A stretch of 64,000 nucleotides of DNA from Dictyostelium discoideum (taxonomy: Eukaryota): positions 4,576,001 through 4,640,000 of the forward strand of contig CM000151.3 in the NCBI GenBank assembly GCA_000004695.1, given 5' to 3'. Positions 5,583 through 63,295 of the stretch are shown piece after piece. The notes under the pieces are model-generated. The model made no database searches and was not told the DNA's origin. It saw nothing but the letters and a program-made list of their open reading frames with translations. Within the stretch, counting starts at the first letter, position 1, and every line of letters starts with the position of its first letter. The position numbers were made by a program, and so were the translations under genes.

Positions 5583-6700
5583 TTAATTTAATGAAAGTTT
5601 AATAAATGAACAAAGAATGTTTGGTAAACTTGAAACTTTATCAATTTTAAAATTTGATAATTTAATTAAATTATTCCATTCATTTAAAGTTCTTTCTTTA
5701 CCACCATTTAAAATATTAATTGTATCTATTTAAAATTTAAATTAAAAAATATAATAATTAATAATAATAATTAAAAATAATTAAATTAAATTTAATTTCA
5801 AAAGATACATACGATATTCAATTGAAATTGGAATTGATTTTTTATTTTTATAAATTATATGATCAAATATATAAATACAAACTTCATTTTGATATGAAGA
5901 TTTAATTGATTTATAAATTTTATTTAAAATTTCTAATACTTGATTATCGCTAAACATATGGAATATATATTTAACTAAATAACAATTGCCAATTGGAAAT
6001 GTTTCATCAGTGAAAAAGTTACCCATTATTTCAAAATAACGATTATCTTTATAATTTTTTTCATTATTTTCAATTACTTCTTTTAAATCATAATTAATAC
6101 CTTTTTCAATGATTGAATTGTTTAAATGATATTTATCCAATATTTTCTTAATAGATTCACCTTGAGAACCACCCAAATCAACAATTGTTTTAAAATTACT
6201 AAAATCAACAATTTCTAAAATTGAATCAATTTGAGTTCTAGTGTATTCAGTCAATGTATTGTGAAAATATTTTTTAAGATTTTTTTCTTTATCAATGAAA
6301 TCAAAACCATCATTATAACCACTATTAAAAGTGCCCATTGCTTTTCCAGTTTTAAGACTTTCTTCAATATGTTTAAAATATGGTAATAATGTAACTTGAA
6401 AATATGAATCATTTACCCATGGATACTTATCTGTATCATTAATTAATGTTTCAGAAATTTCAGTATTTGAAAATAGTCTATCAATTTCTTCATCTTCTTT
6501 AAAAATACCCATAGTAGATAATGTTCTCAATAAAACATATAATCCATGCTCATTATATCCATTACATTCTTAATTGTTTAATACTTTTTGAACCATTTTT
6601 TAATTTATTTGGAATTTCTAATTCTAAAATAACTTTTAATGAGTATGATTTTATATAACCAGTTGCAATATCATATATAAAATTTTTAATTTGAATATTT
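5583..6700 (-). CDS. Class I SAM-dependent O-methyltransferase (COMT-like, plant-type). Core exon 6530..5813, last exon 5725..5583. N-terminal segment about 6700..6560 is in another frame.
   Basis: DLGGSQG SAM motif I, the dimerisation-domain motif LYVLLRTLSTMGIF, and C-terminal NGGKERTLNEWNNL (OMT motif GGKERT). GTATGT donor after ...SIEY. The upstream segment MENIQIKNFIYDIATGYIKSYSLKVILELEIPNKLKNGSKSIKQLRM* is in a different frame with no plausible intron between. Confidence 0.7.
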
Positions 6701-6760
6701 TCCATTATTATTATTATTTATTATTACTATTTCTTTTAATTTTTTTTTTTTAAATAATCC

Positions 6761-6791
<31 letters not shown>

Positions 6792-6878
6792 AAATACTTA
6801 TACAACTAATTTTTATAATATAATAAAAAAAGATAAAATCTCCAAATCTCTTAAATTTTATAAATTGAATACACTAAA

Positions 6879-6884
<6 letters not shown>

Positions 6885-6965
<81 letters not shown>
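6885..6965. repeat. Poly(T) homopolymer of about 81 nt.
   Basis: Uninterrupted T run read directly from the sequence. Confidence 0.95.
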
Positions 6966-7260
6966 CAGTTAATTTCCGACCTATTACATCTCCAATTGGT
7001 TGTCAAAGTAATTGGAATTTCATCAAATTCCTATAATGGTATATTTTACTTATTAAATGATAATAAATAGGCAATTTTTATAATTAATAAATGAGGTATG
7101 TCATTATCTTTAATATTATTATTGTTTCAGATTTATGTGTAAACAAATGAGTGAATTTTAAATTTTCAGAATTTAAACTATTTACAAGAATATTATTAAA
7201 ATAATTATCTATTATTCTTTATTTTGAGTAAATAAATTCAATAATCCTAATAAAAATTAC

Positions 7261-7390
7261 CATTCAAAAATTGTAAACCAAAACCATGTAATAATTCACC
7301 CATTGCATCATTTCTAGTAACAGCACCAATACTTTCTATATGACAAAAATTAATAGCTAAAGTAGGTAATCCTATTCTTCCATATTTGAA
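7261..7390 (-). pseudogene. Isolated fragment of a polyketide synthase ketoreductase (KR) domain C-terminus.
   Basis: Minus-strand translation YGRIGLPTLAINFCHIESIGAVTRNDAMGELLHGFGLQFLNGNFY* is paralogous to the KR segment at 16880-17030 (RRSIGLPALAINFGHIGSIGVVTRNDAISELLHGFGLQSMNGN). It has no upstream or downstream PKS context and ends in a stop. Confidence 0.5.
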
Positions 7391-7589
7391 AGTAGGTAAT
7401 AAAAAGTAAAAAAAACAAGATTTAAATCACCTTTTTTTATTTTTGAATTGTAATTGGCACCCACTTTTATTTTTTTATTTATTATTTTTATTATTATTTT
7501 TATTATTTTTATTATTATTTTTATTATTATTTTTGTTATTATTTTTGTTATTATTTTTATTATTATTATTTTTATTATTATTAATCAGT

Positions 7590-8764
7590 TTAAGACAATG
7601 AAAAAGAATTTTTAAAATCAGAATTTAAATCATCTGTATTATAAAATGTTAATGGTATTGTTTTAACCACTTCAATACTTTCATTTTTAAATGACTCTTT
7701 TTCTTTTTCTTTTTGTTCCTCTTCTTTTTTTTCTTCTTTTTTTTCTTCCTCTTTTTCTTTTTCTTCATGATCTTGGGCTTTGGATGTTAAATGAAAATGA
7801 TAATCTGGTGATGGAATTAAGTCAACATTATCATTACCACTTAAAAGTCTGATTAATTTGAGGAATGGTTTTTCAAGATTAAAATTTGTTCTAACCGATA
7901 GTTCAAAATATGAAATATTCTTTTTACGATGAAATATAATCTGACTTGGGTTAATTCTTTTACCCATTGATTCTACTTTATTACCAACTAAAACCATTGG
8001 AACCACCTTACCTGTTATTCTTAATAATTCATTAAACCAATCGTTAACGCTTCTATATGATTCTCTTGAACAAACATCAAACATTATAATTGCACATTCC
8101 GCTCCAGTCCTATTACAATAATATTAATTAATATTAATATTAATACAATAAATGTTATTTTTTTATATTTATAGTGAATGGAGAGTGTGAGAGTGAGAGA
8201 GAGAGAGAGTGAGTGAGGTATACTTACATATAATCATCTCTCATAGCTCCAGGTAATCTAGTAAAAGCCATATCCCAAATACTGAAATTAACATCACCAA
8301 TAGTTGTTTTAAAATTAAATTTATGAACACTACAACCAAAAGTTGCTAAATAAAAATAAATAAAAATAAAAATATTGGTTATTATTATTTTGGACTGATA
8401 GTTTAATTTAAATTAAAGAGAATAATAAACCTACCAACATATTGAGTTTCAAATTCACCTGTTAAAAGTCTATTTATATAGGTGGACTAATAATAATATG
8501 ATATTAGTATATTTAAATATATTTGAAAAAGTTTATATATATAAAACCTACTTTACCAACTCCACCATCTCCAATTAATACTAATTTAATTTCTTTAGTA
8601 TTGTCAAATTTTTTAACTACTGGTAATGATGGTTTATTTTTTGATGATGATAATCCCAATGAAAATTGCGCACTTGATGGCGATGCTGCTGTTGTTGTTT
8701 TTGGTGTTCCAAAATCAAATGGTGGTGCTGTTGGTGGTGGTCCAAATTCAAATAGTGATGCTGT

Positions 8765-8861
<97 letters not shown>

Positions 8862-10068
8862 CCCAATCCAAACGGTGAACTTAATGGTGATGGTGCTGTT
8901 GGTGAACCCGATCCAAATGATGGCGTACTTGGTGGTACCAATCCAAATAATTCTTGTTCTATTTTTGTAATTTGTCCATATCTAAATGGTGGTGCTGTTG
9001 ATGGTGATGCTGTTGTTGTTGTTGTTGCTACTGTGTTTGATGATCCCGATTCAAATGATGGTGCTGTTGGTGATCCCGATCCAAATGATGGCGTACTTGG
9101 TGGTACCAATCCAAATAATTCCTGTTCTATTTTTGTAATTGGTCTATATCTAACTGGTGGTGCTGTTGGTGTTGATGCTGTTGTTGATGCTGTTGTTGTT
9201 GTTGTTGTTGTTGCTACTGTGTTTGATGATCCACCAAATCCCGATCCAAATGATGGTGCTGTTGGTGATCCCGATCCAAATGATGGCGTACTTGGTGGTC
9301 CAAATCTAAATAATTCTTCTTCTATTTTTGTAATTGATCCATATCCAAATGGTGATGCTGTTGATGTTGATGCTGTTGTTGTTGTCGTTGTTGCTGCTAC
9401 TGTGTTTGATGATCCACCAAATCCTAATGAAAATGCATCTCCTGATGGTAAAAGTGGAAGAGGTGAAACAAAACGAACGTTATCATTACCACTTAATATT
9501 TTGATTAATTGAATGAATGGTGTTTCAAATTTATAATTTGATTTACTTGAAATTTCACAATAGTGAATATTCTTACTACGATGAAAATTAATTTCCTTTG
9601 CTTTAACTTTACGATCTTTGATATCAACTTTATTACCAACTAAAATAATTGGTATATTATTACCTAATTCCTTTGTTAATTCATTAAACCAACTTGGTAC
9701 ATTCCTATATGAAACTCTTGAAGAAACATCAAACATAATAATTGCACATTGACTTCCAACACTATTATAATATATATATAATTAAATATTTTAATATATA
9801 TATATATATATATATACTTTTAATTATGAATTTTTTAAAATAAACTTACTAATATAAATGTCTAAATACTTCAAATTTTTCATCACCACAAGTATCCCAA
9901 ATATCAAAATTAACATTGCCGATATTAGTGTAAAGAATTAGATTACTTAGTTCTACTCCAACCGTAGCTATATTTTTATTTTATTTTTTTTATGTTTTTA
10001 TAATTAATAAAAATAAAAAAAAAGTTAACTATTTTCATAATAATAGTAATAATAATAATAATAATAAC

Positions 10069-10127
<59 letters not shown>

Positions 10128-10673
10128 TGATTTTAATGATACTTACGAATATGGCTTTTTTGAAATTCGCCTATTATATGACGTTTTAAAAATGTAGTCT
10201 AATTAATTCATGATAATAATAATAATAATTAATAATTAATAATTAAAAATGTAAAAATAATAATAAACAATTACTTTACCTTACCAACACCACTATCACC
10301 AACTAATATTAATTTGATGGGTCCATTTTTCTGTGTATTTTTTATGTTTTATGTGTATGTTAGTATATATATTTTTTTTTTTTTTATATTTAATGAAATA
10401 AATAATTTATTTTTAAAAATATATATATATATATATATATATAATTTACAATATCAATTGGTTTAATATTTTGATAAGCTTTTTGTTCAATTGGACTATG
10501 ATCTTCATCCTCAATTGGTATTTGTTCTCCTATTGCTTTTTCATAAGATGAAAGTAGCTCCGAATCAATATCACTAATATTAAATGTTGACTAAAAGTAA
10601 GAGAGTATTTTTAAAAAAAAAAAAAAAAAATTAATAAAAAATATTAATAAAAAATATTTTAAAATGGTAATAT

Positions 10674-10716
<43 letters not shown>

Positions 10717-10725
10717 TGTTACCAT
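7590..10725 (-). CDS. Tandem Ran-like GTPase. Two Ran-like domains joined by an FG/Ser/Thr-repeat linker in one reading frame. Exons 10725..10723 (ATG only), 10590..10450, 10320..10270, 10198..10147, 9967..9850, 9761..8552, 8486..8435, 8345..8228, 8109..7590.
   Basis: Domain 1: [29 protein letters not shown] / PTVGVELSNLILYTNIGNVNFDIWDTCGDEKFEVFRHLYY / [68 protein letters not shown]. This is a strong match to Ran ([84 protein letters not shown]). Domain 2: KLVLIGDGGVGK / STYINRLLTGEFETQYV / ATFGCSVHKFNFKTTIGDVNFSIWDMAFTRLPGAMRDDYM / [46 protein letters not shown].... All introns are GT(A/G)(A/G)GT...AG with consistent phases. ORF 8513..9736 is open from domain 1 through the linker into the domain-2 P-loop, and the linker contains no Met. 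Confidence 0.7.
8760..9420. repeat. Coding tandem repeats: (GAT)n of about 110 bp (poly-Ser of about 37 residues on the minus strand) plus three copies of a 180-bp unit.
   Basis: (gatgat)n at 8760-8870. Near-identical 180-bp units start about 8881, 9060 and 9240 (ccgatccaaatgatggcgtacttggtggtaccaatccaaataattc...). Each encodes PPSTPSFGSGSPTAPSFGSG..TTTTT..ITKIEQELFGLV. Confidence 0.85.
10040..10128. repeat. (TAA)n microsatellite inside an intron of the Ran-like gene.
   Basis: Direct observation of an (ataata)n run. Confidence 0.9.
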
Positions 10726-11637
10726 TTTAAAATATTATAAAAATAATAATTAAAAAAAAAAAAAATTTATAAAAATTGTAACTTGGTGAATTTTTTAAAA
10801 TGGAAATAAGTTGGAAAAATTATGCATTACTTTGGCAAAAGCAGACTTTTAAGAGAAAAAAAGTTTTTATAAGTATTTGCACCATAAAAACTTTTTAGAT
10901 ATTTACGATGATGAAAAAAAAAATGAAAAAAATGAAAAAAATAATAAAAAAAATGAAAAATAGATGGAGTTGAAAACAAGAGTGAGGCGTTTTCTTGGTG
11001 TGTCTTGATCTTGACCCCTTCACCAAAGTTAAAACAAATTTAATTCAAAAAAAAATAAATTTAAATAAAAAAAATAAAAAAAATTTAAATAAAAAAAAAA
11101 AAAACTTTTAACCAAAGCAAAAATATAAATAAAAAAAATCATTTCACAAGAAATAAACACATAAACACACAAATAAAATGAATAAATATTTATTTTTTTA
11201 TTATTATTATTTTTATTTCTCATTATTTTGAGATTGTTTTCTTTTTAATTTTCCTAATTAGGATTTTTTTTTTTTTTTTTTTTTTTTTGGTGAGTTTTGA
11301 GATAATAATAAATTGAAAAATTGGTCTATCTTTGCCAATGAATTAAAGAAATGCAAAAAAGAAAAATAAAATAAAATAAAATAATAAATGTAGGTGAAAC
11401 ATTCTATTAATGATGCTTCGCATTTGTCACCTTTCATGTATAGAATTTCTTTTGTGGAGATAGATGTTGTTCCAAATTTATATTGACCTCATTGAATTTG
11501 CATCTGTACCCAAATGGATATTTGAACCAAATTTGTTTTCTGATCTGAGACAAGATAAACTATCTATCAATATAGATTGCAATACGAGTGAGTTTACGAA
11601 CACAAGTGGATTGATTGTTAACTTTATTACTTTCAGT

Positions 11638-31654: not shown

Positions 31655-34600
31655 TTAGCTTCTACTTTGTAATGAATGAATATTATTTTTAAACTTCATT
31701 TCCTTCTTTCTCATTACAAAATGATAGGTAACTGAGGATATTACTACTGCAGCAAATGCGACACTACCCACTACAATACCAGCAATTGCACCACCACTTA
31801 ATCCACTGGATTTTTGAGAACAAATTGAATTTGGTGATGAAGATGAACTTGATGAATGATCTAATAATACTGAGAAATCAGGATCTACTATAACTTCAGA
31901 TTTATACTGTGGTATTATAATACCAATATATGAAGATGAGAATGATTCAGAATTTGATTGAGTTTGATTATTTTCAATAACTCTATTATCGATTGGGGTA
32001 ATTAGTCCATCTGCAATACCTCTTTTTAAGAATCTTGCATACATTGAATGATCTCCAATTTGAATTTTTAAATAATCTTCGTTTGTATTATTTCCAAATT
32101 GTTGAGATGAACAAATATCGTCACTGCTAGATGATTCAAATGTTGCTGACATTAATAATTCTAATTTACTTAATCGATTTCTAAATGGATATGAATTGAT
32201 TGAAATTGTATATTTTGAAGTTGATGGGTTCATTTGTAAATTATTACCAGCGAATGATATATTTGTAGCCTTATCAAACCATTGAATAGTTACATTTGTT
32301 TGTGATATTGTAATGTCATCTCTTGTAATATTAGTTATATACAATGATGTATTATTAGTTAAATCACTGTAAATCCATTTTTCAAAGTAATAGGTATTGA
32401 TTACATTATATTCATAATCGAGTTCTCTTAAAGCTACTAATGATATTAAAGATCTAAATGTAATATCAAGATTCGATGAGGTGGTAGTTGTTCCGTTTGG
32501 TGTTGAAATTTCGGTTGATGGATCGGTTGTATTAATTGATGGTTGTGGTACAATAATAACTTTGGATGTACAGTCAATACCAACCCATGGTGTGAAACAA
32601 ACACAACCCGATGTACTAGTATCACAATAACCTTGATTTGAACCACCACATTCTGGTTTTCCTGGACATTGTGGTCTTTTAGTTGGTGTCGGTGTTGGTG
32701 TTGGTGTTGGTGTTTCAGATGAAGATTCAGATGGTGTTTGAGATGGTGTTTGAGATGGTGTTTCAGTTGGTGTTTCAGTTGGTGTTTCGGTTGGTGTTTG
32801 AGTTGGTGTTTCGGTTGGTGTTTGGGTTGGTGTTTCAGTTGGAGTTTGAGTTGGTGTTTCAGTTGGAGTTTGAGTTGGTGTTTCAGTTGGAGTTTGAGTT
32901 GGTGTTTGAGTTGGTGTTTGAGTTGGTGTTTGAGTTGGTGTTTCAGTTGGTGTTTCAGTTGGTGTTGGTGTTTGAGTTGGGGTTGGTGGATCTGGAATAA
33001 ATAATAATACTTTTTGATATGGATAAATAAAATATTCATTTGAAGATATTGATTTATCATTTTCTAATATAATACTAAAGTTACTACCTTGATCCATTTC
33101 AGAGATACCGCCTAATAAAATAGCAGCACCCCCAACAGTTTTTTTAACTTGTAATGGTTTAGTAGTTGATTTATAATTGAATGTTGCACCAGTAACTGAT
33201 TTAAATCCTTTACCTGTTAACCATAAATCACCACCTAATGTAGAAATTCTATCAGAACCTGTAATAACTGGAACATCGATTGTATATGTTGTATTTATTA
33301 AATATGGGAAACCTAATTGTTTAAAATCATTAGAGCTATAACCACTATAATATCCACCATTATTTACTAAACCATAAACTGATAATAAAATTCCAAATGG
33401 GTAACCATATGCTACTGGTAATGAAATTGAACATTGATATGATTTTGAATTTGAATTGATTATTGTTTCAGATGTAATTTGACATTGAATTGTATTGAAA
33501 TCAGTTGAAGTTAAATAAATTACTGGGTAACTATTATTTTTAACACCAGATGCTAAATTTTCAACCTCTAAATTAAATGAAACAACTCTTTCACTTAAAC
33601 CTACATCAACTACAGTTTTATCACTAGAAAATTTTTTAATTACAACTGGTGTTGGATCACTTACTTCATTTGGACAAGTAACTGATATTTTATTGATTGA
33701 TGGATCATTAAAATAGTACATAAATGGATTATAAAGAGAGTTTAAAATAAATTTATAATCACTAAATAATGAAAATGTTGAATTATTATTTTCAGTATCA
33801 AATAGTAATACATCAGAAATAATATAGTCTTGAGAAATACAAGGAGTTGATAAATTAATACCAACTGTATATACTTGTTCAAATACATCAGTTGTTGGAT
33901 ATAATGTAAAATTATAATTTGAACCATCAATTGCACCTTTAACTACAATATAACCACTTTTAAAACCATTAATTGGATCACTAATTGTTAATTTCCAACC
34001 AATTTCAGTATTAGTTTGAATTGTAACTGGTGATGAAGATGGATACTTTTGAATTCTTTTAAATATTGGACCCATTAAATCAGCATCTTTATTAAACAAT
34101 TTGAATATTAAATTAGTAATTAATTTTTTCAATAAAAATAAATAAATAAAAATTTTAACTTACTTTCTGAAATTACATTAAATGAAGCATTACTACCTAA
34201 TGCACTATTCAATACCCATTGTTTTCTATTAAAAAAGAGGGCATAAGACATTGGACCTTGTCTCGAATTTCTTGGCAAATAAAATTCAACTTGAAACATT
34301 TTAATTGTATCATTCCATTGTGCTGGCCAAGCTTTATCTAGTAATCCTTGAGGATAGATTGGATCATCATTCAAATATTCTTTTATCCATTGTTGATGAT
34401 GAACCAATAGAGATATTGGTGAATTGATATCTAAATTTGACATATTAAAATATAAAATATTACCAGCAACAACATTTGTAACATCCATTGTTTTATAAAA
34501 AATTGAAGCATTTTGAACATTATAAAAATTGAAACCTTTAAAAGCAATTAAAAAAAAGTTAGTTTATATGTAATAAAAAACAATAGTTCATTATAATATT

Positions 34601-37287: not shown

Positions 37288-40015
37288 TTATTTTACTTTT
37301 TCCAATTTATTTGTAATGGATCTATTAAATTTATTTTCTTGATTCCTTTTTACAAAATGAAAGGAAAGTGAGAATATTACTACTGCAGCAAATGTGACAC
37401 TACCTATTACAATACCAGCAATTTCACCACCACTTAATCCACTGGATTTTTTAGAACAAATTGAATTTGGTGATGAAGATGAACTTGATGAATGATCTAA
37501 TAATACTGAGAAATCAGGATCTACTATAACTTTAGATTTATACTGTGGTATTATAATACCAATATATGAAGATGAGAATGATTCAGAATTTGATTGAGTT
37601 TGATTATTTTCAATAACTCTATTATCGATTGGGGTAATTAGTCCATCTGCAATACCTCTTTTTAAGAATCTTGCATACATTGAATGATCTCCAATTTGAA
37701 TTTTTAAATAATCTTCGTTTGTATTATTTCCAAATTGTTGAGATGAACAAATATCGTCACTGCTAGATGATTCAAATGTTGCTGACATTAATAATTCTAA
37801 TTTACTTAATCGATTTCTAAATGGATATGAATTGATTGAAATTGTATATTTTGAAGTTGATGGGTTCATTTGTAAATTATTACCAGCGAATGATATATTT
37901 GTAGCCTTATCAAACCATTGAATAGTTACATTTGTTTGTGATATTGTAATGTCATCTCTTGTAATATTAGTTATATACATAGATGTATTATTAGTTAAAT
38001 CACTGTAAATCCATTTTTCAAAGTAATAGGTATTGATTACATTATATTCATAATCGAGTTCTCTTAAAGCTACTAATGATATTAAAGATCTAAATGTAAT
38101 ATCAAGATTCGATGAGGTAGTAGTTGTTCCGTTTGGTGTTGAAATTTCGGTTGATGGATCGGTTGTATTAATTGATGGTTGTGGTACAATAATAACTTTG
38201 GATGTACAGTCAATACCAACCCATGGTGTGAAACAAACACAACCCGATGTACTGGTATCACAATAACCTTGATTTGAACCACCACATTCTGGTTTTCCTG
38301 GGCATTGTGGTTTTTTAGTTGGTGTTTGAGTTGGAGTTTGAGTTGGTGTTTGAGATGGTGTTTCAGATGGTGTTTCAATGGGGGTTTCAGATGGTGTTTG
38401 AGTTGGTGTTTCCGTTGGTGTTTGAGATGGTGTTGGAATTGGAGTTGAAGGGTCTGGTGTTACAGTTGGTGTTGGAGTTGGTGATGGAGTTTCTGGTTCA
38501 CGAGTTGGTACATAATTCAATACTTTTTGATATGGATAAATAAAATATTCATTTGAAGATATTGATTTATCATTTTCTAAAATAATACTAAAGTAGGTAC
38601 CTGGATCCATTTCAGTGATACCGCCTAATAAAATAGCAGCACCTCCAATAATTTTGTTAACTTGTAATGGTTTAGTAGTTGATTTATAATTGAATGTTGC
38701 ACCAGTAACTGATTTAAATCCTTTACCTGTTAACCATAAATCACCACCAAATGTTGAAATTCTATCGGAACCTGTAATAACTGGAATATCGATTGTATAG
38801 GTTGTATTAATAAAATATTGGAAACCTAATTTATTAATATCATCAGAGCTATAACCACTGTAGTATCCACCATTATTTACTAAACCATAAACTGACAATA
38901 AAATTCCAAATGGGTAACCGAATGCTACTGGTAATGAAGCTGAACATTGATATGATTTTGATTTTGGTGTTATTATTGTTTCAGATGTAATTTGACATTG
39001 AATTGTATCGAAATCAGTTGCAGTTAAATAAATTACTGGGTAACTATTATTTTTTACACCAGATGCTAAATTTTCAACTTCTAAATAAAATGGAACGATT
39101 CTATAGCTTAAACCTACATCAACTGTTTTATTACCACAAACAAAATTTTTAATTACAACTGGTGTTGGATCATATACCTCATTTGGACAAGTAACTGATA
39201 TTTTATTGATTGATGGATCACCGAGATAATTCATAAATGGATTAAAAAGTGATAATCCTATGAATTTGTCATCATTAAATAATGTAAATGTTGAATTATT
39301 ATTTTCAGTATCAAATAGTAATACATCAGAAATAATATAGTCTTGAGAAATACAAGGAGTTGATAAATTAATACCAACTGTATATACTTGTTCGAATATA
39401 TTATTTGTTGGATTAATAGTAAAATTATAATTTGAACCATCAATTGCACCTTTAACTACAATATAACCACTTTTAAAACCATTAATTGGATCACTAATTG
39501 TTAATTTCCAACCGATCTCAGTATTAGTTTGAGTTATAACTGGTGATGATGATGATGGATACTTTTCAATATTTTTAAATATTGGACCTAGCAAATCCAT
39601 TTTTTCAGAAATTACATTAAATTGAGCATCACTACCAAATGCATTATTTAAAACAAATACATTTCTTTTAAAAAAGAGTGCATACGGTAAATTTCCACTT
39701 TTAGAATTTCTTGGCAAATAAAACTCTGCTTGAAACATTCTAATTGTTTCATTCCATTTTGCTGGCCAAACTTTATGATACAATTCAGATGGAATTGTTT
39801 GGTCTTGGATGGTTTGGAATTTTTGTGTTGATGGTTGGTGGTGAATAAATAAACTCAATGGTGAATCAATATCTATATTTGTCAAATTAAAATAAAGAAT
39901 ATTTCCTGCAACTGAATTTGTTACATTCATTGTTTTAAAAAGTATTGATGCATTTCTAATATCATACATATTGAAACCTATAATTAAAATTATTGTTTTA
40001 ATAATTTAGTTATTT

Positions 40016-49297: not shown

Positions 49298-51388
49298 ATG
49301 ATAGCAAGTTATTTTGAAGTAGTCGCAATTAAAGATCATAAACCAATTCATCAATCCCAATTATTATTTAGAAAGGGAGAAAAGATATTAGTTGTAGAGA
49401 CAGCACCAACAGGATGGTGGAAAGGTGAAATTGGTAATAGAAAAGGGTTGTTCCCAGAATCTTACGTTTCACAATCACCAACACCATCAATGATAACATC
49501 ACCAGTTCCAACCTCACCATTGGTTCATACAACAATCACTTCAACACCAAATGTTGCATCACCACAATCTTTAAATATTGAAAATAATAATATTACACTA
49601 TTACCACCTCCACCTCCAGTTATAATTAGTAATGAAGAATCAACATCATCAGCAGCATCATATTCATCTTCATTATCTTCATCCTCTCAACTACAACAAC
49701 AGCCACAAGCACCACAATTAGTTGTACCACCAATTAAACAATTAAATAAAGTTGGATCATCAGTAACATTTAGTGATTCACCATCAGTTATAATTTCATC
49801 TTCAACAGCTACAACAACTAATAATGGTACATTATCACCAACAACTTCTTCACCACACACCGATAGTCCAATTAATAAATCACCACGTTTTAATATTTCA
49901 CCAACTGATATAGCAAATTCAGCACCAAGAATGACAAGCCACACAAGAAAGAATTCAGGTCCTGCAAAATCAATCTCCTCTCAAAATGATAGTAGTGATG
50001 ATAGTGATACTTCTCCAACATTGAAAGGTGTTAATGGTGGTGTTAATGTTGGTGGTGGTATTGGTGGTGAAGGTATTTCATCCACAAGTAAACCAAATAA
50101 ACAATATAGTAGTGCAACTGTAAACATTAAAGATTTAAAACAACATATGGAAAAGCACCAACAAAATTCAACAATGGGTAGAAATGTTAATTCACGTACT
50201 CCATTACATTCAACTGGTAGAGGTATCAGCGTTGGTGATGTAAATACAGAGGTTCCCTATTATATTTGTCGTGCCATTGAAGCACATTCTCAGCAAGGTT
50301 TTGACGAACTAGAATTTCAAGTTGGTGACTTAATTGTAATCTATAATTCAAAAACTGTTGATTCAGATTGGTGGGTTGGTCGTTTTAAAACAACTTATGG
50401 TTTATTACCAAAGAAATGTGTTGAAATTATTAGAGATATTTCTCCAACTTCTGCAACTGCATTATCACCTTCAAAATCATCACCAACTACATCAACAACA
50501 ACAACAACAACGACAACAACTACTAATACCGCTACAACAGCATCTCCACCAATTAAATCAACAATAGCCACACCACCACCACCATTACAAAAACCTATAA
50601 CACCAGCACCACAAACAACTTTTACTCCAGTACCACCACAACCAGCACCATATAAGTTTGATATAAACTCAAATTATAAAAAAGGTATTGCTTTAACAAA
50701 TTATAATAGCCAATTTGCAACTTATCTTTCATTTAAAAAAGGTGATATAATGGTATTAGAATCAAAAGAGGGTGATTTTTGGAAAGCACGTATTGGTGGT
50801 CAAGTTGGTTTAGTTTCTCCAAATTATATTAGAGAACATGATGTACAAGTACATCCACCAACTACAACCTTTACTGCTTCAGTTTATGATAACTCAAATA
50901 ATTCAAATAATTCAAATAGTAATAGTAATAATATAAGTAATACTACAAATAGTAATAATGATAATATTAATACCAATATTAATAATTTAGCACTACCAGT
51001 AAAACCATCACCACCAATATCACCAAGAACAAACAACAACAACAACAATAATAATAGTATTAATAATAATGTAAATAGAAACGAAAATGAAAATACCAAT
51101 ATTAATCATGAACAACAACAACAATCAAAAACAGTAAATATATCTCAAATTAAAAATGATGCTAATAAAAGTAGTGAAATTGATGATGATGGTATAGCTA
51201 GAAAAATTAGGGATTCATTTACTCATTTCCAAACCAGGGAGGAATTACTTGATGCAATTCAAAATCTAGCAATTAAATTTGTAAAACAAACATCAGCTTT
51301 GAAAAAAGAGTTACAGCAAGAACAACAAGAAAAAGCAAATCTTGAGATGGAATTACAAGAAATCAAACAAAGATATAATATAAATTAA
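49298..51388 (+). CDS. Triple-SH3-domain protein with a C-terminal coiled coil, single exon.
   Basis: ATG at 49298. SH3 1: YFEVVAIKDHKPIHQSQLLFRKGEKILVVETAPTGWWKGEIGNRKGLFPESYV. SH3 2: YYICRAIEAHSQQGFDELEFQVGDLIVIYNSKTVDSDWWVGRFKTTYGLLPKKCVEII. SH3 3: IALTNYNSQFATYLSFKKGDIMVLESKEGDFWKARIGGQVGLVSPNYI. C-terminal ...LKKELQQEQQEKANLEMELQEIKQRYNIN*. Confidence 0.75.
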   Translation: MIASYFEVVAIKDHKPIHQSQLLFRKGEKILVVETAPTGWWKGEIGNRKGLFPESYVSQSPTPSMITSPVPTSPLVHTTITSTPNVASPQSLNIENNNITLLPPPPPVIISNEESTSSAASYSSSLSSSSQLQQQPQAPQLVVPPIKQLNKVGSSVTFSDSPSVIISSSTATTTNNGTLSPTTSSPHTDSPINKSPRFNISPTDIANSAPRMTSHTRKNSGPAKSISSQNDSSDDSDTSPTLKGVNGGVNVGGGIGGEGISSTSKPNKQYSSATVNIKDLKQHMEKHQQNSTMGRNVNSRTPLHSTGRGISVGDVNTEVPYYICRAIEAHSQQGFDELEFQVGDLIVIYNSKTVDSDWWVGRFKTTYGLLPKKCVEIIRDISPTSATALSPSKSSPTTSTTTTTTTTTTNTATTASPPIKSTIATPPPPLQKPITPAPQTTFTPVPPQPAPYKFDINSNYKKGIALTNYNSQFATYLSFKKGDIMVLESKEGDFWKARIGGQVGLVSPNYIREHDVQVHPPTTTFTASVYDNSNNSNNSNSNSNNISNTTNSNNDNINTNINNLALPVKPSPPISPRTNNNNNNNNSINNNVNRNENENTNINHEQQQQSKTVNISQIKNDANKSSEIDDDGIARKIRDSFTHFQTREELLDAIQNLAIKFVKQTSALKKELQQEQQEKANLEMELQEIKQRYNIN

Positions 51389-55679: not shown

Positions 55680-57744
55680 TTATTTAGTTGGCAATAGTTT
55701 TACATGTTTGATAAAGAAATGTGTGGGAATAGAGTTTATAAAATTTAAACTATCATTATAGATACAAATAAATTCAAATGAAGGTGGCCATATTAAATCT
55801 GGTAATTCATCACAATTATAACCTGTAAAATAAAATGATTTCAAATTAGGTGGTAAGGCATCTCTATCGATAGTTGAATTGAAAAAATCTGAAATTCGTA
55901 ATAAAGTGAGTGATGATGGTAATACATCTCTTTGAATTGGTTGTTTGTAACTTGGTAATTTTAATACCCCTATGGATGATGGTAGATCTCCAACATTTAA
56001 GGGTTGATTAAAATCATAGATTTTTAATTTTTTAAGATTATTTGGTAAGAGACTATCGTTTAATTCGAATTCATCTGAAACTGTTAAAACTAGTTTTGAA
56101 ATAGTAGGTGGGAATTTTACATCTGTTAAATCTATTTGACTTACATTGAGTTTCAACGATGTTAAATTTTTGAAAAAATCTAAAGAGTGTAAATGTGGGT
56201 TCCGAGTAGTGAAATTCATTATTTTTAGTGTTTGAATTGTTTTGGGTAATATTTGAATATCAGAGAATGCGTTCATTGATAAATTTGTAATTGTTGGTGG
56301 AAAGAGAGCTGCATTATCTTTGTTTCTACCAAGATGTAAAGTTTTAATTGAGATTGGTAATGAGTTTGGTTCAAGTTTATGATTGCCCGACTTGAATATC
56401 AATGATGTAACATTGTGTGGAATCATTCCTTTTTCAATGGTCTGATTAAAAAAAGAATCAAACTCTAATGAAGTTGTACCACCTGGTATAGATGTCGAGT
56501 CTAATTTATTAGTACCTCTTTTAGAATCAAAAGAATAATCAAGAGTTGTTACTGATTTTGGTATTGATCCATATAGAATTATTCCTTGATAATTTGGATC
56601 TAATATCAATGAGGTGAGTGATGGTGGTAATTCATCTCTATGAATTGAATGTTGAAATGATTTTCCAAAAGTTAAAGATTTTAATGTTCTTGGTAGCAAT
56701 GGTATACCATTTGTGTCACTTAATGATTGATTAAACTCATCACTAAAATCAATCGATGTTAGACTATTACCAATCATATTACGAGTTAATTGTTGATCAA
56801 AATCAATCAATGTAATGGACTTACATGTATCTGGTATCCAATGGTCTACTAGTATAATATCTGAACAATCCATCTCTATATTTTCCGCAATTTGTGGCAT
56901 TGGATACCAATTTGAGTAACGTTGGTTTTCATATCCATTTAAATCAAATAATCTGATGTTATTAAAATAATTTCTATATTTATATGTTGAAAAATTATTT
57001 ATCCCTATATCAAAGCTATTATTATGATTATTATATATTCTAAGATGAAATAAAATTTGATCCCTAATAACCATATTTCCCCAAATTTTTTTAAATAATA
57101 TATAATTATTATCAATTGTTTGATTTTTTAGTTGATTTGTTCTTATATTATTATTATTAATATCAGGTTGTGATTTTAAAATTAATTGATTTAAATTATT
57201 ATTATTAATGGTAATATGATGATTTAAATTATTTTTAATGATTATAAGTATTGAACAATCGAATGAAATTCTTTTATTTCTATTGTTAATTGTGTCATTA
57301 TTATTATTATCTGTAATTGAATGAGTATATATAATTTCATTATTAGAATTATTGGTTGTAAATGTGTTTTTTAAATTTTGAATATGATTATTTAGTGTTT
57401 GAAATTGTTGATCATTTAATCCTTTTAAATCATTTAAATGCTTTTTTTCATCTTCTTCTTGTCTATATAAATATGTTTTTATAATTAGTATAATAATAAT
57501 AAAAATAATAAAATAAAAAATATAAAATATCAAAGTGTGTTAACGTATACAATTTTTTTTCTTTTTTATTTTGAAGGTTTTCATTATTGTTTTTATAATT
57601 ATTGATACTATTACAATAATCTTGAAGTTGATTGAATGTAATATTTAAACTATTAATTGATAATATTAATAAACAATTTAAAAGCTCTTCATTGTTTTTA
57701 TTATTATAATTATTAATTAAATAAGAGTAAATTATATTATCCAT
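55680..57744 (-). CDS. FNIP-repeat protein, copy 1. Exons 57744..57551, 57472..55680.
   Basis: Repeated FNQ...IP units (FNQSLSDTNGIPLLPRTLKSLTFGKSFQHSIHRDELPPSLTSL; FNQTIEKGMIPHNVTSLIF; FNQPLNVGDLPSSIGVLKL...). Exon 1 is MDNIIYSYLINNYNNKNNEELLNCLLILSINSLNITFNQLQDYCNSINNYKNN...KKL, followed by a GTATAC donor. Confidence 0.75.
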
Positions 57745-61235: not shown

Positions 61236-63295
61236 TTAATAATTTAATTTCCCACGTTTTAATAGTTTTGTATGTTTGATAAAGAAATCTGTGGGAATAG
61301 AGTTTATAAAATTTAAACTATCATTGTAGATATAAACAAATTCGAATGAAGGTGGCCATATTAAATCTGGTAATTCATCACAATTATAACCTGTAAAATA
61401 AAATGATTTCAAATTAGGTGGTAAGGCATCTCTATCGATAGTTGAATCGAAAAAATCAGAAATTCGTAATAAAGTGAGTGATGATGGTAATACATCTTTT
61501 TGAATTGGTTGTTTGTAACTTGGTAATTTTAATACCCCTATAGATGATGGTAGATCTCCAACATTTAAGGGTTGATTAAAACCATAGATTTTTAATTTTT
61601 TAAGATTATTTGGTAAGAGACTATCGTTTAATTCGAATTCATCTGAAACTGTTAAAACTAGTTTTGAAATAGTAGGCGGGAATTTTACATCTGTTAAATC
61701 TATTTGACTTACATTGAGTTTCAACGAAGTTAAATTTTTGAAAAAATATAAAGAGTGTAAATGTGGGTGGGAACGAGTAGTGAAATCCATTATTTTTAGT
61801 GTTTGAATTGTTTTGGGCAATAGAAACACTTCAAGGCATTCATGTATTGATAAATTTGTAATTGTTGGTGGTAATTGAGCTGAATAGTCTTTGTTTCTAC
61901 CAAGATGTAAAGTTTTAATTGAGATTGGTAATGAATCTGGTTCAAGTTTATGATTGCCCGAACCGAATTTCAATGATGTAACATTGTTTGAAATCACTCC
62001 TTTTTCAATGGTCTGATTGAAAAAATAATCAAACTCTAAAGATGTTGTGCCACCTGGTACCGATGTTGAGTCAAATTTACATGTACCATCTTTAGAATCA
62101 AAATAACAATGAAGAGTTGTTACTGACTTTGGTATTGATCCATATAGAATTACTCCTTGATATTTTGGATCCAATAATAATGATGTAAGTGATGGTGGTA
62201 TTTCGTCTCTATGAATTGAATGTTGAAATAGTTTTCCAAAAGTTAAAGATTTTAATGTTCTTGGTAACCATGGTATACCATTTGTATCACTTAAAGATTG
62301 ATTAAATTCATTACCAAAATCAATAGATGTTAGACTATTACCAATGATATTACGGGTTAATTGTTGATCAAAATCTATAAATGTAATGGATTTACATGTA
62401 TCTGGTATCCAGTGTTCTCCAAGTATAATATCTGAACATCTCATCTCTATATTTTCAACAATTTGTGGCATTGGATAACAATTTGAGTTACGTTGGTTTT
62501 TATAGCCATCAGAATCCAATAACTTGACATTATTAAAATAATTTCTATATTTATATGTTGAAATGTTATTTCTCCTTATATCAAAGCTATGATTATGATT
62601 ATTATATATTCTAAGATGAAATAAAATTTGATCCCTAATAATCATATTTCCCCAAAACTTTTTAAATAATATATAATTATTATCAATTGTTTGATTTATT
62701 TGTTGATTTGTTTTAATTTTATTATTAATATCAGATTGTGATTTTAAAATTAATTGATTTATATTATTATTATTAGTGAGATGATTTAAATTATTTTTAA
62801 TGATTATAAGTATTGAACAATCGAATGAAATTCTTTTATTTCTATTGTTAATTGTGTCATTATTATTATTATCTGTAATTGAATGAGTATATATAATTTC
62901 ATTATTAGAATTATTGGTTGTTAATATATTTTTTAAATTTTGAATTTGATTATTTAGTGTTTGAAATTGTTTGTCATTTAATCCTTTTAAATCATTTAAA
63001 TGCTTTTTTTCCTCTTCTTGTCTAAAAATGTTTATAAATTAGTATAATAATATAATAATAAAATATAAAATATAAAATAATCAAAGTGTGTTAATGCATA
63101 CAATTTTTTTATTTTTTTTATTTGAAGGTTTTGATTATTGTTTTTGTAATTATTGATACTATTACAATAATCTTGAAGTTCATTGAATGTAATATTTAAA
63201 TTATTAATTGATAATATTAATAAACAATTTAAAAACTCTTCATTATTTCTATTGTTATAATTATTAATTAAATAAGAGTAAATTATATTATCCAT
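61236..63295 (-). CDS. FNIP-repeat protein, copy 3. Exons 63295..63102, 63021..61236.
   Basis: Exon 1 MDNIIYSYLINNYNNRNNEEFLNCLLILSINNLNITFNELQDYCNSINNYKNNNQNLQIKKIKKL, then a GTATGC donor and ttttag acceptor. Exon 2 is open from 63021 to the stop at 61236 (RQEEEKKHLNDLKGLNDKQFQTLNNQIQNLKNILTTNNSNNEIIY...FNQSLSDTNGIPWLPRTLKSLTFGKLFQHSIHRDEIPPSLTSL...). Confidence 0.75.

Follow-up and report, generated by a model that had tools for sequence, protein, structure and literature searches.

A second Ran-like domain without the switch II glycine and glutamine in the probable ranB gene of Dictyostelium discoideum

A 64,000-nucleotide (nt) stretch of Dictyostelium discoideum chromosome 2, here called the window and used for all coordinates, contains on its minus strand (7590..10725) a gene that is very probably ranB (DDB_G0274943) and that encodes two Ran-like domains in one polypeptide. 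The second of these, referred to as domain 2, carries DMAFTR in switch II where Ran has DTAGQE, so that the glycine of the DxxG motif and the catalytic glutamine are both replaced, while most of the elements that hold phosphate, Mg2+ and guanine are kept. We hold with moderate confidence that domain 2 would be a pseudoGTPase, that is, a selectively maintained, nucleotide-holding and non-cycling interaction module with a Ran fold. The features on which this reading is based are the following.

8552..8572, minus strand: P-loop GDGGVGK of domain 2, G1 intact; its Ser codon (8484-8486) lies beyond intron 6
8486-8435, minus strand: exon 7, helix 1 and switch I (STYINRLLTGEFETQYV) of domain 2
8345-8228, minus strand: exon 8, 118 nt, phase 1, beta2-beta3 and switch II of domain 2
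8257..8274, minus strand: DMAFTR, degenerate G3/switch II of domain 2, replacing DTAGQE (Gly68 to Phe, Gln69 to Thr)
8109-7590, minus strand: exon 9, stop included
7815..8109, minus strand: C-terminal two thirds of domain 2 (CAIIMFDV...LSGNDNVDLI), identical to the Logan-called protein P0001
7971..7982, minus strand: G4 NKVE of domain 2, a normal Ran variant
7920-7931, minus strand: basic patch HRKK, kept in domain 2
7890..7898, minus strand: G5 SVR of domain 2, replacing SAK
7593..7814, minus strand: charged tail without DEDDDL, ending in the conserved motif IPLTFYNTDDLNSDFKNSFSLS (7593-7658)

Switch II and the other motifs of domain 2

Exon 8 is bordered by AG and GT, its first two bases finish the Ala codon started by exon 7, and its last two open a Met codon completed in exon 9. 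In the spliced frame its product is (A)TFGCSVHKFNFKTTIGDVNFSIWDMAFTRLPGAMRDDY(M), which begins with TFGCSV and ends with WDMAFTRLPGAMRDDY, and the spliced coding sequence around it reads YVATFGCSVHKFNFKTTIGDVNFSIWDMAFTRLPGAMRDDYMTGAECAIIMFDV. Read straight through in frame 1, the interval 8228-8345 yields no meaningful protein, owing to the phase 1 of the exon. The first-pass annotation of this DNA had placed DMAFTR at the position of DTAGQE within an exon running from 8345 to 8228, and both the splice sites and a gapless alignment with Gsp1 and Ran confirm this placement. Exon 8 is identical in five D. discoideum assemblies, namely the window, GCA_054883475.1 (L004) and the Logan assemblies L001-L003, which derive from three different sequencing runs, and the odd motif is therefore not a sequencing error. 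In domain 2 and the tail, the assemblies differ only at two synonymous sites, 8085 (ATA/ATT) and 7776 (GCC/GCA).

For comparison, 184 canonical single-domain Rans were recovered by homology searches and aligned with both domains. T66, A67, G68, Q69 and E70 are each present in 184/184 of these sequences, where domain 2 has M, A, F, T and R, and A151 and K152 are each present in 183/184, where domain 2 has V and R. The loss of Gly and Gln at G3 and the replacement of SAK by SVR at G5, both proposed in the first-pass annotation, are thus borne out. However, the NKVE that it regarded as a degenerate G4 is ordinary for the family, as position 125 is Asp in 119/184 and Glu in 65/184 (35%) of the canonical Rans. 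Domain 2 retains GDGGVGKS, Thr42 (in YVATFG, with its codon in exon 8), Asp65, N122, K123 and HRKK, together with the CAIIMFDV and LTGEFE strings that had been named as preserved along with the P-loop.

Domain 2 aligns with yeast Gsp1 and human Ran over 171 residues and without a gap through switch II, with 46-49% identity, and its best matches in the PDB are Ran/Gsp1 (E = 6.5e-54) as opposed to 1e-19 for Rabs. With canonical Ran/Gsp1 (PDB 3m1i, 1i2m) it has in common the P-loop, Thr42, Asp65, NKx(D/E), HRKK and the predicted fold (TM 0.87), whereas the canonical switch II DTAGQEKFGGL corresponds to DMAFTRLPGAM, and the canonical protein is a single G domain ending in DEDDDL as opposed to the second G domain of a 754-residue protein. 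The acidic DEDDDL switch element is absent here, the protein terminating in ...DLNSDFKNSFSLS after a Glu/Lys-rich stretch. K71 and F72, which we take to be contacts of Ran-GDP to NTF2, are also lost in domain 2, and binding of NTF2 is for this reason unlikely. With regard to the features that define the Ran family, the fold, G1, G2 and G4 are present, whereas G3, G5 and the acidic C-terminus are not. Judged by its sequence, domain 2 should not bear the name Ran GTPase and fits the sequence-level definition of a pseudoGTPase.

The fold was predicted with AlphaFold2 using a 99-sequence alignment, as a single-sequence run (predicted local distance difference test, pLDDT, 39.5) was unusable and was not considered. 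The resulting model of domain 2 has a pLDDT of 86.8 and a predicted template modelling score (pTM) of 0.86, and its best Foldseek matches are Ran-GPPNHP and Gsp1 complexes with TM scores of 0.84-0.87 and a root mean square deviation of ~2 Å. Because the alignment consists of canonical Rans and the RanB of D. purpureum, the model indicates compatibility with the Ran fold, as predicted in the first-pass annotation, and says nothing about the nucleotide state.

The loss of the glycine is rare among Ran-like proteins. Among 21 Ran-like domains, taken from Ran proteins that are tandem or divergent and aligned to the canonical Ran profile, it is missing only in domain 2 and in both domains of the very degenerate P0223, and the tandem Rans of Saprolegnia, Physarum and several metagenomic eukaryotes, in which switch II is degenerate, almost always keep it. 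Two Ran domains in one chain are found in Physarum polycephalum transcript P0278, in metagenomic P0222 and P0373, in P0124 and in Saprolegnia parasitica P0125/P0002 (SPRG_11234, without FG). Phenylalanine-glycine (FG) type repeats are arranged as FG-Ran-Ran in P0278 and P0222 and as Ran-(SLFG)4-Ran in P0373. At least one switch II is degenerate in P0278, P0222, P0373 and the Saprolegnia proteins; in most of them the DxxG glycine is present and the end resembles DEDDDL. These fusions are probably independent in origin, since their domains do not group with either D. discoideum domain in a neighbour-joining tree.

Hydrolysis and nucleotide binding

In Ras-like switches, the backbone NH of the DxxG glycine binds the gamma-phosphate and draws switch II into its active conformation, and in Ran, Gln69 orients the hydrolytic water, for which RanGAP offers no arginine or other substitute. 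Since Gly68 and Gln69 are replaced by Phe68 and Thr69, this established mechanism implies that domain 2 would neither hydrolyse GTP nor couple the difference between GTP and GDP to a change in switch II, and the description of the domain as non-hydrolysing in the first-pass annotation appears sound. Domain 2 would remain a binding module in a fixed state with a constitutive interaction surface, and the nucleotide would persist in it as a structural cofactor, because the holders of phosphate, Mg2+ and guanine are intact after long divergence. In Ras, mutations of the equivalent G5 alanine raise nucleotide exchange, and by analogy A151V in domain 2 may speed it up. To our knowledge, no Ran-derived pseudoGTPase has been described; pseudoGTPases are a known kind of protein, to which domain 2 would be a Ran-derived addition.

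The closest functional analogy is offered by the RGK GTPases (Rad, Gem/Kir, Rem, Rem2), in which G3 is DXWE instead of DXXG and which are described as GTP-binding proteins considered to depart from the canonical switch (PMC4081519). Like domain 2, they lack both the G3 glycine and the catalytic Gln, but they are Ras-like rather than Ran-like animal Ca2+-channel proteins with other replacement residues, and the homology is only at the superfamily level. The class i pseudoGTPases have a GTPase fold and do not bind nucleotide (PMC12490416, PMC5593906). As in domain 2, the fold of p190RhoGAP pG1/pG2 and of the AAGAB psGD has no catalysis and serves as an interaction module inside a larger protein; however, these class i members are also devoid of most G motifs, whereas domain 2 keeps G1, G2, the Asp of G3 and G4.

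It is conceivable, although unlikely, that domain 2 itself belongs to class i, with Phe68 and Val151 occluding or destabilising the pocket and leaving an empty Ran-shaped scaffold. That such nucleotide-free proteins exist, that G3 and G5 are altered exactly where Ran is 99-100% invariant, and that the Ras mutations at the G5 alanine have the effect described all speak for it. However, class i examples are typically without P-loop and guanine motifs, whereas GxxxxGKS, Thr42, Asp65 and NK are all intact in domain 2 after a long divergence (synonymous divergence, dS, ~1.3 per branch), and RGK proteins without the G3 glycine still bind GTP. The intact G1, Thr42, Asp65 and N122/K123 and the RGK precedent likewise leave the suggestion that the domain is perhaps non-binding without positive support. 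Of the pseudo-GTPase reading in the first-pass annotation, the loss of Gly and Gln and the altered G5 in a kept fold with a kept P-loop stand, the argument from NKVE fails, and the suggestion of absent binding is unsupported.

Descent of the two domains and selection

The history of domain 2 can be followed by comparison with domain 1 of the same protein and with the RanB of D. purpureum. Domain 1 has the following features.

9479..10324, minus strand: Ran-like domain 1, exons 3-6, with G1 GDSGVGKT, G4 NKVD and G5 SSK
9879-9896, minus strand: G3 DTCGDE of domain 1, Gly kept, Ala67 to Cys, Gln69 to Asp

In an exhaustive HMMER scan with P0001, the product of the last exon, the D. purpureum protein 'ranB, RAN GTPase' (XP_003285303.1, P0224) was the sole protein matching as far as the C-terminus. 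Searches for closer orthologues with domain 2, domain 1, a RanB profile and exhaustive HMMER gave only this protein and the genomic open reading frame (ORF) fragment P0001. A survey of dictyostelid small GTPases gives ranB orthologues for D. purpureum, D. lacteum and P. pallidum (PMC8923023), of which the latter two were not recovered in these orthologue searches. The C-terminal end IPITFFDPEDLNSDFKKNLNLN of D. purpureum RanB matches the D. discoideum tail motif IPLTFYNTDDLNSDFKNSFSLS with the shared pattern IP(L/I)TF..DLNSDFK, and the derived residues F26Y, V27I, D125E, A133P, K134S and Y155F are shared with domain 2, neither canonical Ran nor domain 1 having them. The D. purpureum gene, rebuilt from L005 8001-8810, consists of three exons (100, 118 and 492 nt) separated by two introns at the codon positions that are also interrupted in each D. 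discoideum domain. A 118-nt switch II exon is common to D. purpureum ranB, domain 2 (exon 8) and domain 1 (9850-9967). The D. purpureum gene differs in encoding one domain of 236 residues in total, with no linker, and in having no P-loop intron. Its protein keeps the DxxG glycine (WDISGD) and has lost Gln69 (Asp), with G4 SKTE and G5 STQ. GCN1 ends 350 nt upstream, and there is therefore no second domain at the D. purpureum locus.

Based on these sequence comparisons, D. purpureum RanB is the best candidate orthologue of domain 2 with its tail, and the two group together in a neighbour-joining tree with 60% bootstrap. Since the D. purpureum protein has one domain and retains the glycine, the two-domain architecture and the glycine loss are confined to the D. 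discoideum lineage, at any rate in comparison with D. purpureum. The catalytic Gln is missing in domain 1 too (DTCGDE), and its loss is older and common to the whole RanB group, which is probably insensitive to GTPase-activating proteins. However, the relationship of the domains is contradictory as judged from sequence. Domain 2 comes close to D. purpureum RanB by residues, tail and tree, whereas it comes close to domain 1 by the P-loop intron absent in D. purpureum, the strings WFNEL and LSGNDNV, rare codons and a finite dS between the domains (~2.1), both comparisons to D. purpureum being saturated. This pattern could have arisen through an internal duplication of recent date, with domain 2 changing faster thereafter, or through an earlier duplication and partial gene conversion between the two domains.

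Under the reading as a maintained module, domain 2 would have been kept by selection since its divergence from domain 1, and the glycine would have been lost on the way to D. discoideum, once its lineage had separated from that of D. purpureum. The frame of domain 2 is open over 175 codons, which are divided among four exons joined at canonical splice sites, and the two other frames contain 14 and 34 stops. At the base composition of the exons, a random stop would occur about every 11 codons and the probability of no stop in 175 codons is ~3e-8. Rates were estimated with a maximum likelihood codon model of the Goldman-Yang type, using F3x4 and window codon frequencies. A Nei-Gojobori dN/dS of 0.79 for domain 1 against domain 2 was rejected as an artefact of the AT-biased codon usage, with a GC content at third codon positions (GC3) of ~12%. 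Among residues identical in the two domains, the codon is the same in 57/76 cases compared with 45 expected at full saturation.

The maximum likelihood comparison of domain 1 and domain 2 gives omega = 0.20 and a likelihood ratio test (LRT) statistic against omega = 1 of 23-26. For either domain against D. purpureum RanB, dS is saturated, the nonsynonymous divergence (dN) is 0.52-0.56 and the LRT is 54-74 (63 for domain 2). The first-pass annotation had suggested dN/dS against other Dictyostelium species as a check on whether the domain is under purifying selection despite the motif loss. Carried out with domain 1 and D. purpureum RanB in a three-sequence model, this check gives the domain 2 branch an omega of 0.16-0.17, and the overall range of 0.16-0.20 fits a maintained module, but omega = 1 is rejected for this branch (LRT 20.3, p = 7e-6) only if dS is equal on both domain branches. 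Change in excess of that in domain 1 is located in loops, where 21/46 conserved positions are altered in domain 2 and 11/46 in domain 1 (p = 0.048), as opposed to 13/38 and 12/38 strand positions. Within domain 2, avoidance of beta-strands compared with loops was not significant (34% vs 46%, p = 0.37). Purifying selection on domain 2 is the best estimate from these sequences; it is not proven for the domain 2 branch alone.

Several points weigh against the interpretation of domain 2 as a maintained, nucleotide-holding module. With all branch lengths free, neutrality of its branch is not rejected (LRT 3.2, p = 0.075), the synonymous sites being near saturation, and domain 2 has 31 lineage-specific changes relative to the canonical consensus compared with 16 in domain 1 (p = 0.029). 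The estimates of constraint do not bear on the time since the glycine loss, for the dating of which no close orthologue was available. Both the loss of hydrolysis and the binding of nucleotide are deduced from sequence, and the large side chain of Phe in place of the glycine could, along with Ala151Val, instead block or weaken binding. The AlphaFold model depends on the alignment of canonical Rans and D. purpureum RanB. No spliced transcript or peptide spanning exon 8 was present in the collections searched, and the published detections of RanB are silent on which part of the protein was seen. Finally, the assignment of the locus to DDB_G0274943 is an inference, and this gene number is not adjacent to the numbers of the neighbouring genes.

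The unrejected neutrality and the excess of changes, together with the fact that D. purpureum copes with one domain, would also suit a decaying relic, that is, a domain that became redundant after internal duplication and drifts without a function of its own, the motif loss being the first visible damage. We consider this improbable, as 175 codons and four splice junctions have stayed intact, the point estimate of omega is 0.16 and beta-strand positions are conserved as in domain 1. In addition, the features common to D. purpureum RanB, including the C-terminal motif, sit in domain 2 and not in domain 1, so that domain 2 is the orthologous part and not the spare copy.

Rap has Thr at the Gln position, and its catalysis is supplied by RapGAP. 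As the replacement of Gln69 in domain 2 is also Thr, its phosphate- and Mg-binding elements are intact and two G domains in one chain could complement each other, an unconventional active GTPase could be imagined, with catalysis in trans, as by RapGAP for Rap, or in cis by domain 1. This is very improbable: Rap and other GTPases without the Gln keep the DxxG glycine, whose loss abolishes gamma-phosphate sensing and which among the 21 domains is missing only in domain 2 and P0223, and domain 1 is itself without Gln69.

Gene model, identity as ranB and implications

The gene model was assembled from the minus-strand reading of 6500-11500, and an ORF elsewhere in the window (49298-51388) corresponds exactly to DDB_G0274423 of strain AX4. 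In addition to exons 7-9, the gene is composed as follows.

7590..10725, minus strand: whole gene, 9 exons, 754 codons plus stop, probable ranB
10725-10723, minus strand: exon 1, ATG only
10590-10450, minus strand: exon 2
10330-10280, minus strand: exon 3
10198-10147, minus strand: exon 4
9967-9850, minus strand: exon 5
9761-8552, minus strand: exon 6, a single continuous 1210-nt ORF
8612..9478, minus strand: Ser/Thr/Pro/FG-rich linker with tandem repeats and no Pfam match

The protein consists of an N-terminal extension, Ran-like domain 1 (residues ~51-216), the linker, Ran-like domain 2 (~506-680) and a Glu/Lys-rich tail, and Pfam Ras matches two stretches of it (1.1e-77). All introns are GT..AG. 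The exons have a GC content of 27-35% and seven introns one of 6-15%, and GC1 > GC2 > GC3, a coding-type pattern, is seen in both Ran-like domains. The start ATG is the same in an independent NCBI annotation of another assembly. Exon 6 begins midway in domain 1, covers the linker and reaches into the P-loop of domain 2, and because this one ORF joins both domains, the fusion is independent of any splice choice.

An in-frame TAG overlaps the donor of intron 5 (9849-9851, minus strand; TAT TA|GTAAGT), and an unspliced message would yield the first 121 residues only. The automated annotation of GCA_054883475.1 ends at this TAG and splits the gene into products of 121 and 665 residues (L004 2093-2960 and 3073-5562). 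Intron 8 (8110-8227, minus strand) contains a CT-rich tract, ctcactcactctctctctctctcactctcacactctcc, and has 24.6% GC. Between assemblies, a Leu/Pro difference is found in the linker at 9459 (CTT/CCT), and the poly-A run of intron 1 (10707-10715) shows a 9-base length difference between the window and the other assemblies. That exons 7-9 lie outside the expressed protein, for example owing to an earlier transcript end, is the least probable of the alternatives, for although the TAG, the split annotation and the absence of a spliced product from the protein collections speak for it, exon 6 links the two domains, the introns of domain 2 are positioned as in domain 1 and in D. purpureum ranB, the contrast in GC between exons and introns is sharp, and the second of the split models is sized and placed over domain 2.

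The linker has 290 residues, among them 77 Ser, 43 Thr and 37 Pro, and 13 FG dipeptides compared with 1.9 expected from shuffling. Within it, a 168-195 nt unit whose translation includes ...ITKIEQELFGLVPPSTPSFGSGSPTAPSF... occurs two to three times, and a (TCA)35 tract encodes poly-Ser. A Pfam scan of the linker gave no match, and by its sequence it looks like nucleoporin FG repeats.

The survey lists only two Ran genes in D. discoideum, ranA and ranB (DDB_G0274943), and finds ranA and ranB co-expressed in a single cluster with ranbp1 and two genes for RCC1-domain proteins (PMC8923023). RanB (Q554Y4) is a candidate O-fucosylated protein, captured 25.2-fold (p = 0.044) from slugs by an anti-fucose-O-Ser antibody and marked 'Yes' for AAL capture from vegetative cells, in a table that also contains FG nucleoporins and transportin (PMC11507795 Table 2). 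It was also detected in a developmental proteome (PMC6830349). The capture fits the Ser- and Thr-rich linker and would not suit a bare Ran domain of 236 residues. The gene was taken as ranB because only two Ran genes are listed, the orthologue bears this name and the O-fucosylation capture suits the linker. Searches of protein collections with domain 1, domain 2, a RanB profile and exhaustive HMMER returned no D. discoideum protein from this locus, and literature searches for neighbouring DDB_G numbers, and for the sequence in the supplements of PMC8923023, gave nothing linking the locus to DDB_G0274943. The survey and the proteomic papers treat RanB as a Ran homologue, and we found no paper that describes its two-domain architecture or its motif losses.

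A wider and quite speculative idea is that RanB could act as a non-cycling mimic of Ran associated with the nuclear pore, in which two GTPase-dead Ran folds, one of them frozen for want of the glycine that senses the gamma-phosphate, and an O-fucosylated FG linker would constitutively hold karyopherins or Ran-binding domains at the pore or in its FG phase. Such a protein would present a permanent surface like that of RanGTP or RanGDP, independently of the RCC1/RanGAP gradient, the Ran-FG fusions of Physarum and uncultured eukaryotes being convergent.

Other observations concern the neighbourhood of the gene. Downstream, an O-methyltransferase gene (ATG 6705, ORF to 5781, minus strand) shows a +1 shift at ~6562-6575, between ...GSKSIKQL and ECNGYNEHGLYVLLRTL; frame 0 meets a TAA at 6564-6562, and no rescuing GT..AG intron was seen there. 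The shift indicates either a frameshifted pseudogene or a one-base error, and the annotation of another assembly has a 331-residue Methyltransf_2 product in this region. Further away, the minus-strand ORFs 31655-34132 and 37288-39969 encode large proteins of secreted or membrane type with Thr-Pro repeat blocks and near-identical C-terminal halves, and the minus-strand ORFs 55680-57533 and 61236-62645 contain many short degenerate repeats and have near-identical C-terminal thirds. Both pairs look like local tandem duplications.

For the annotation of D. discoideum, these results correct ranB, which catalogues treat simply as a second Ran GTPase and which one automated annotation cuts in two. 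Few eukaryotic proteins are as conserved as Ran, and no variation in switch II was seen among the canonical sequences sampled. If our reading is true, domain 2, joined by an FG/Ser/Thr-rich and apparently O-fucosylated linker to a second Ran-like domain that lacks the Gln, would offer a naturally locked Ran in an organism amenable to genetics, with which it could be asked which partners of Ran, such as karyopherins, RanBP1, NTF2 and RCC1, need the switch and which need the fold alone.

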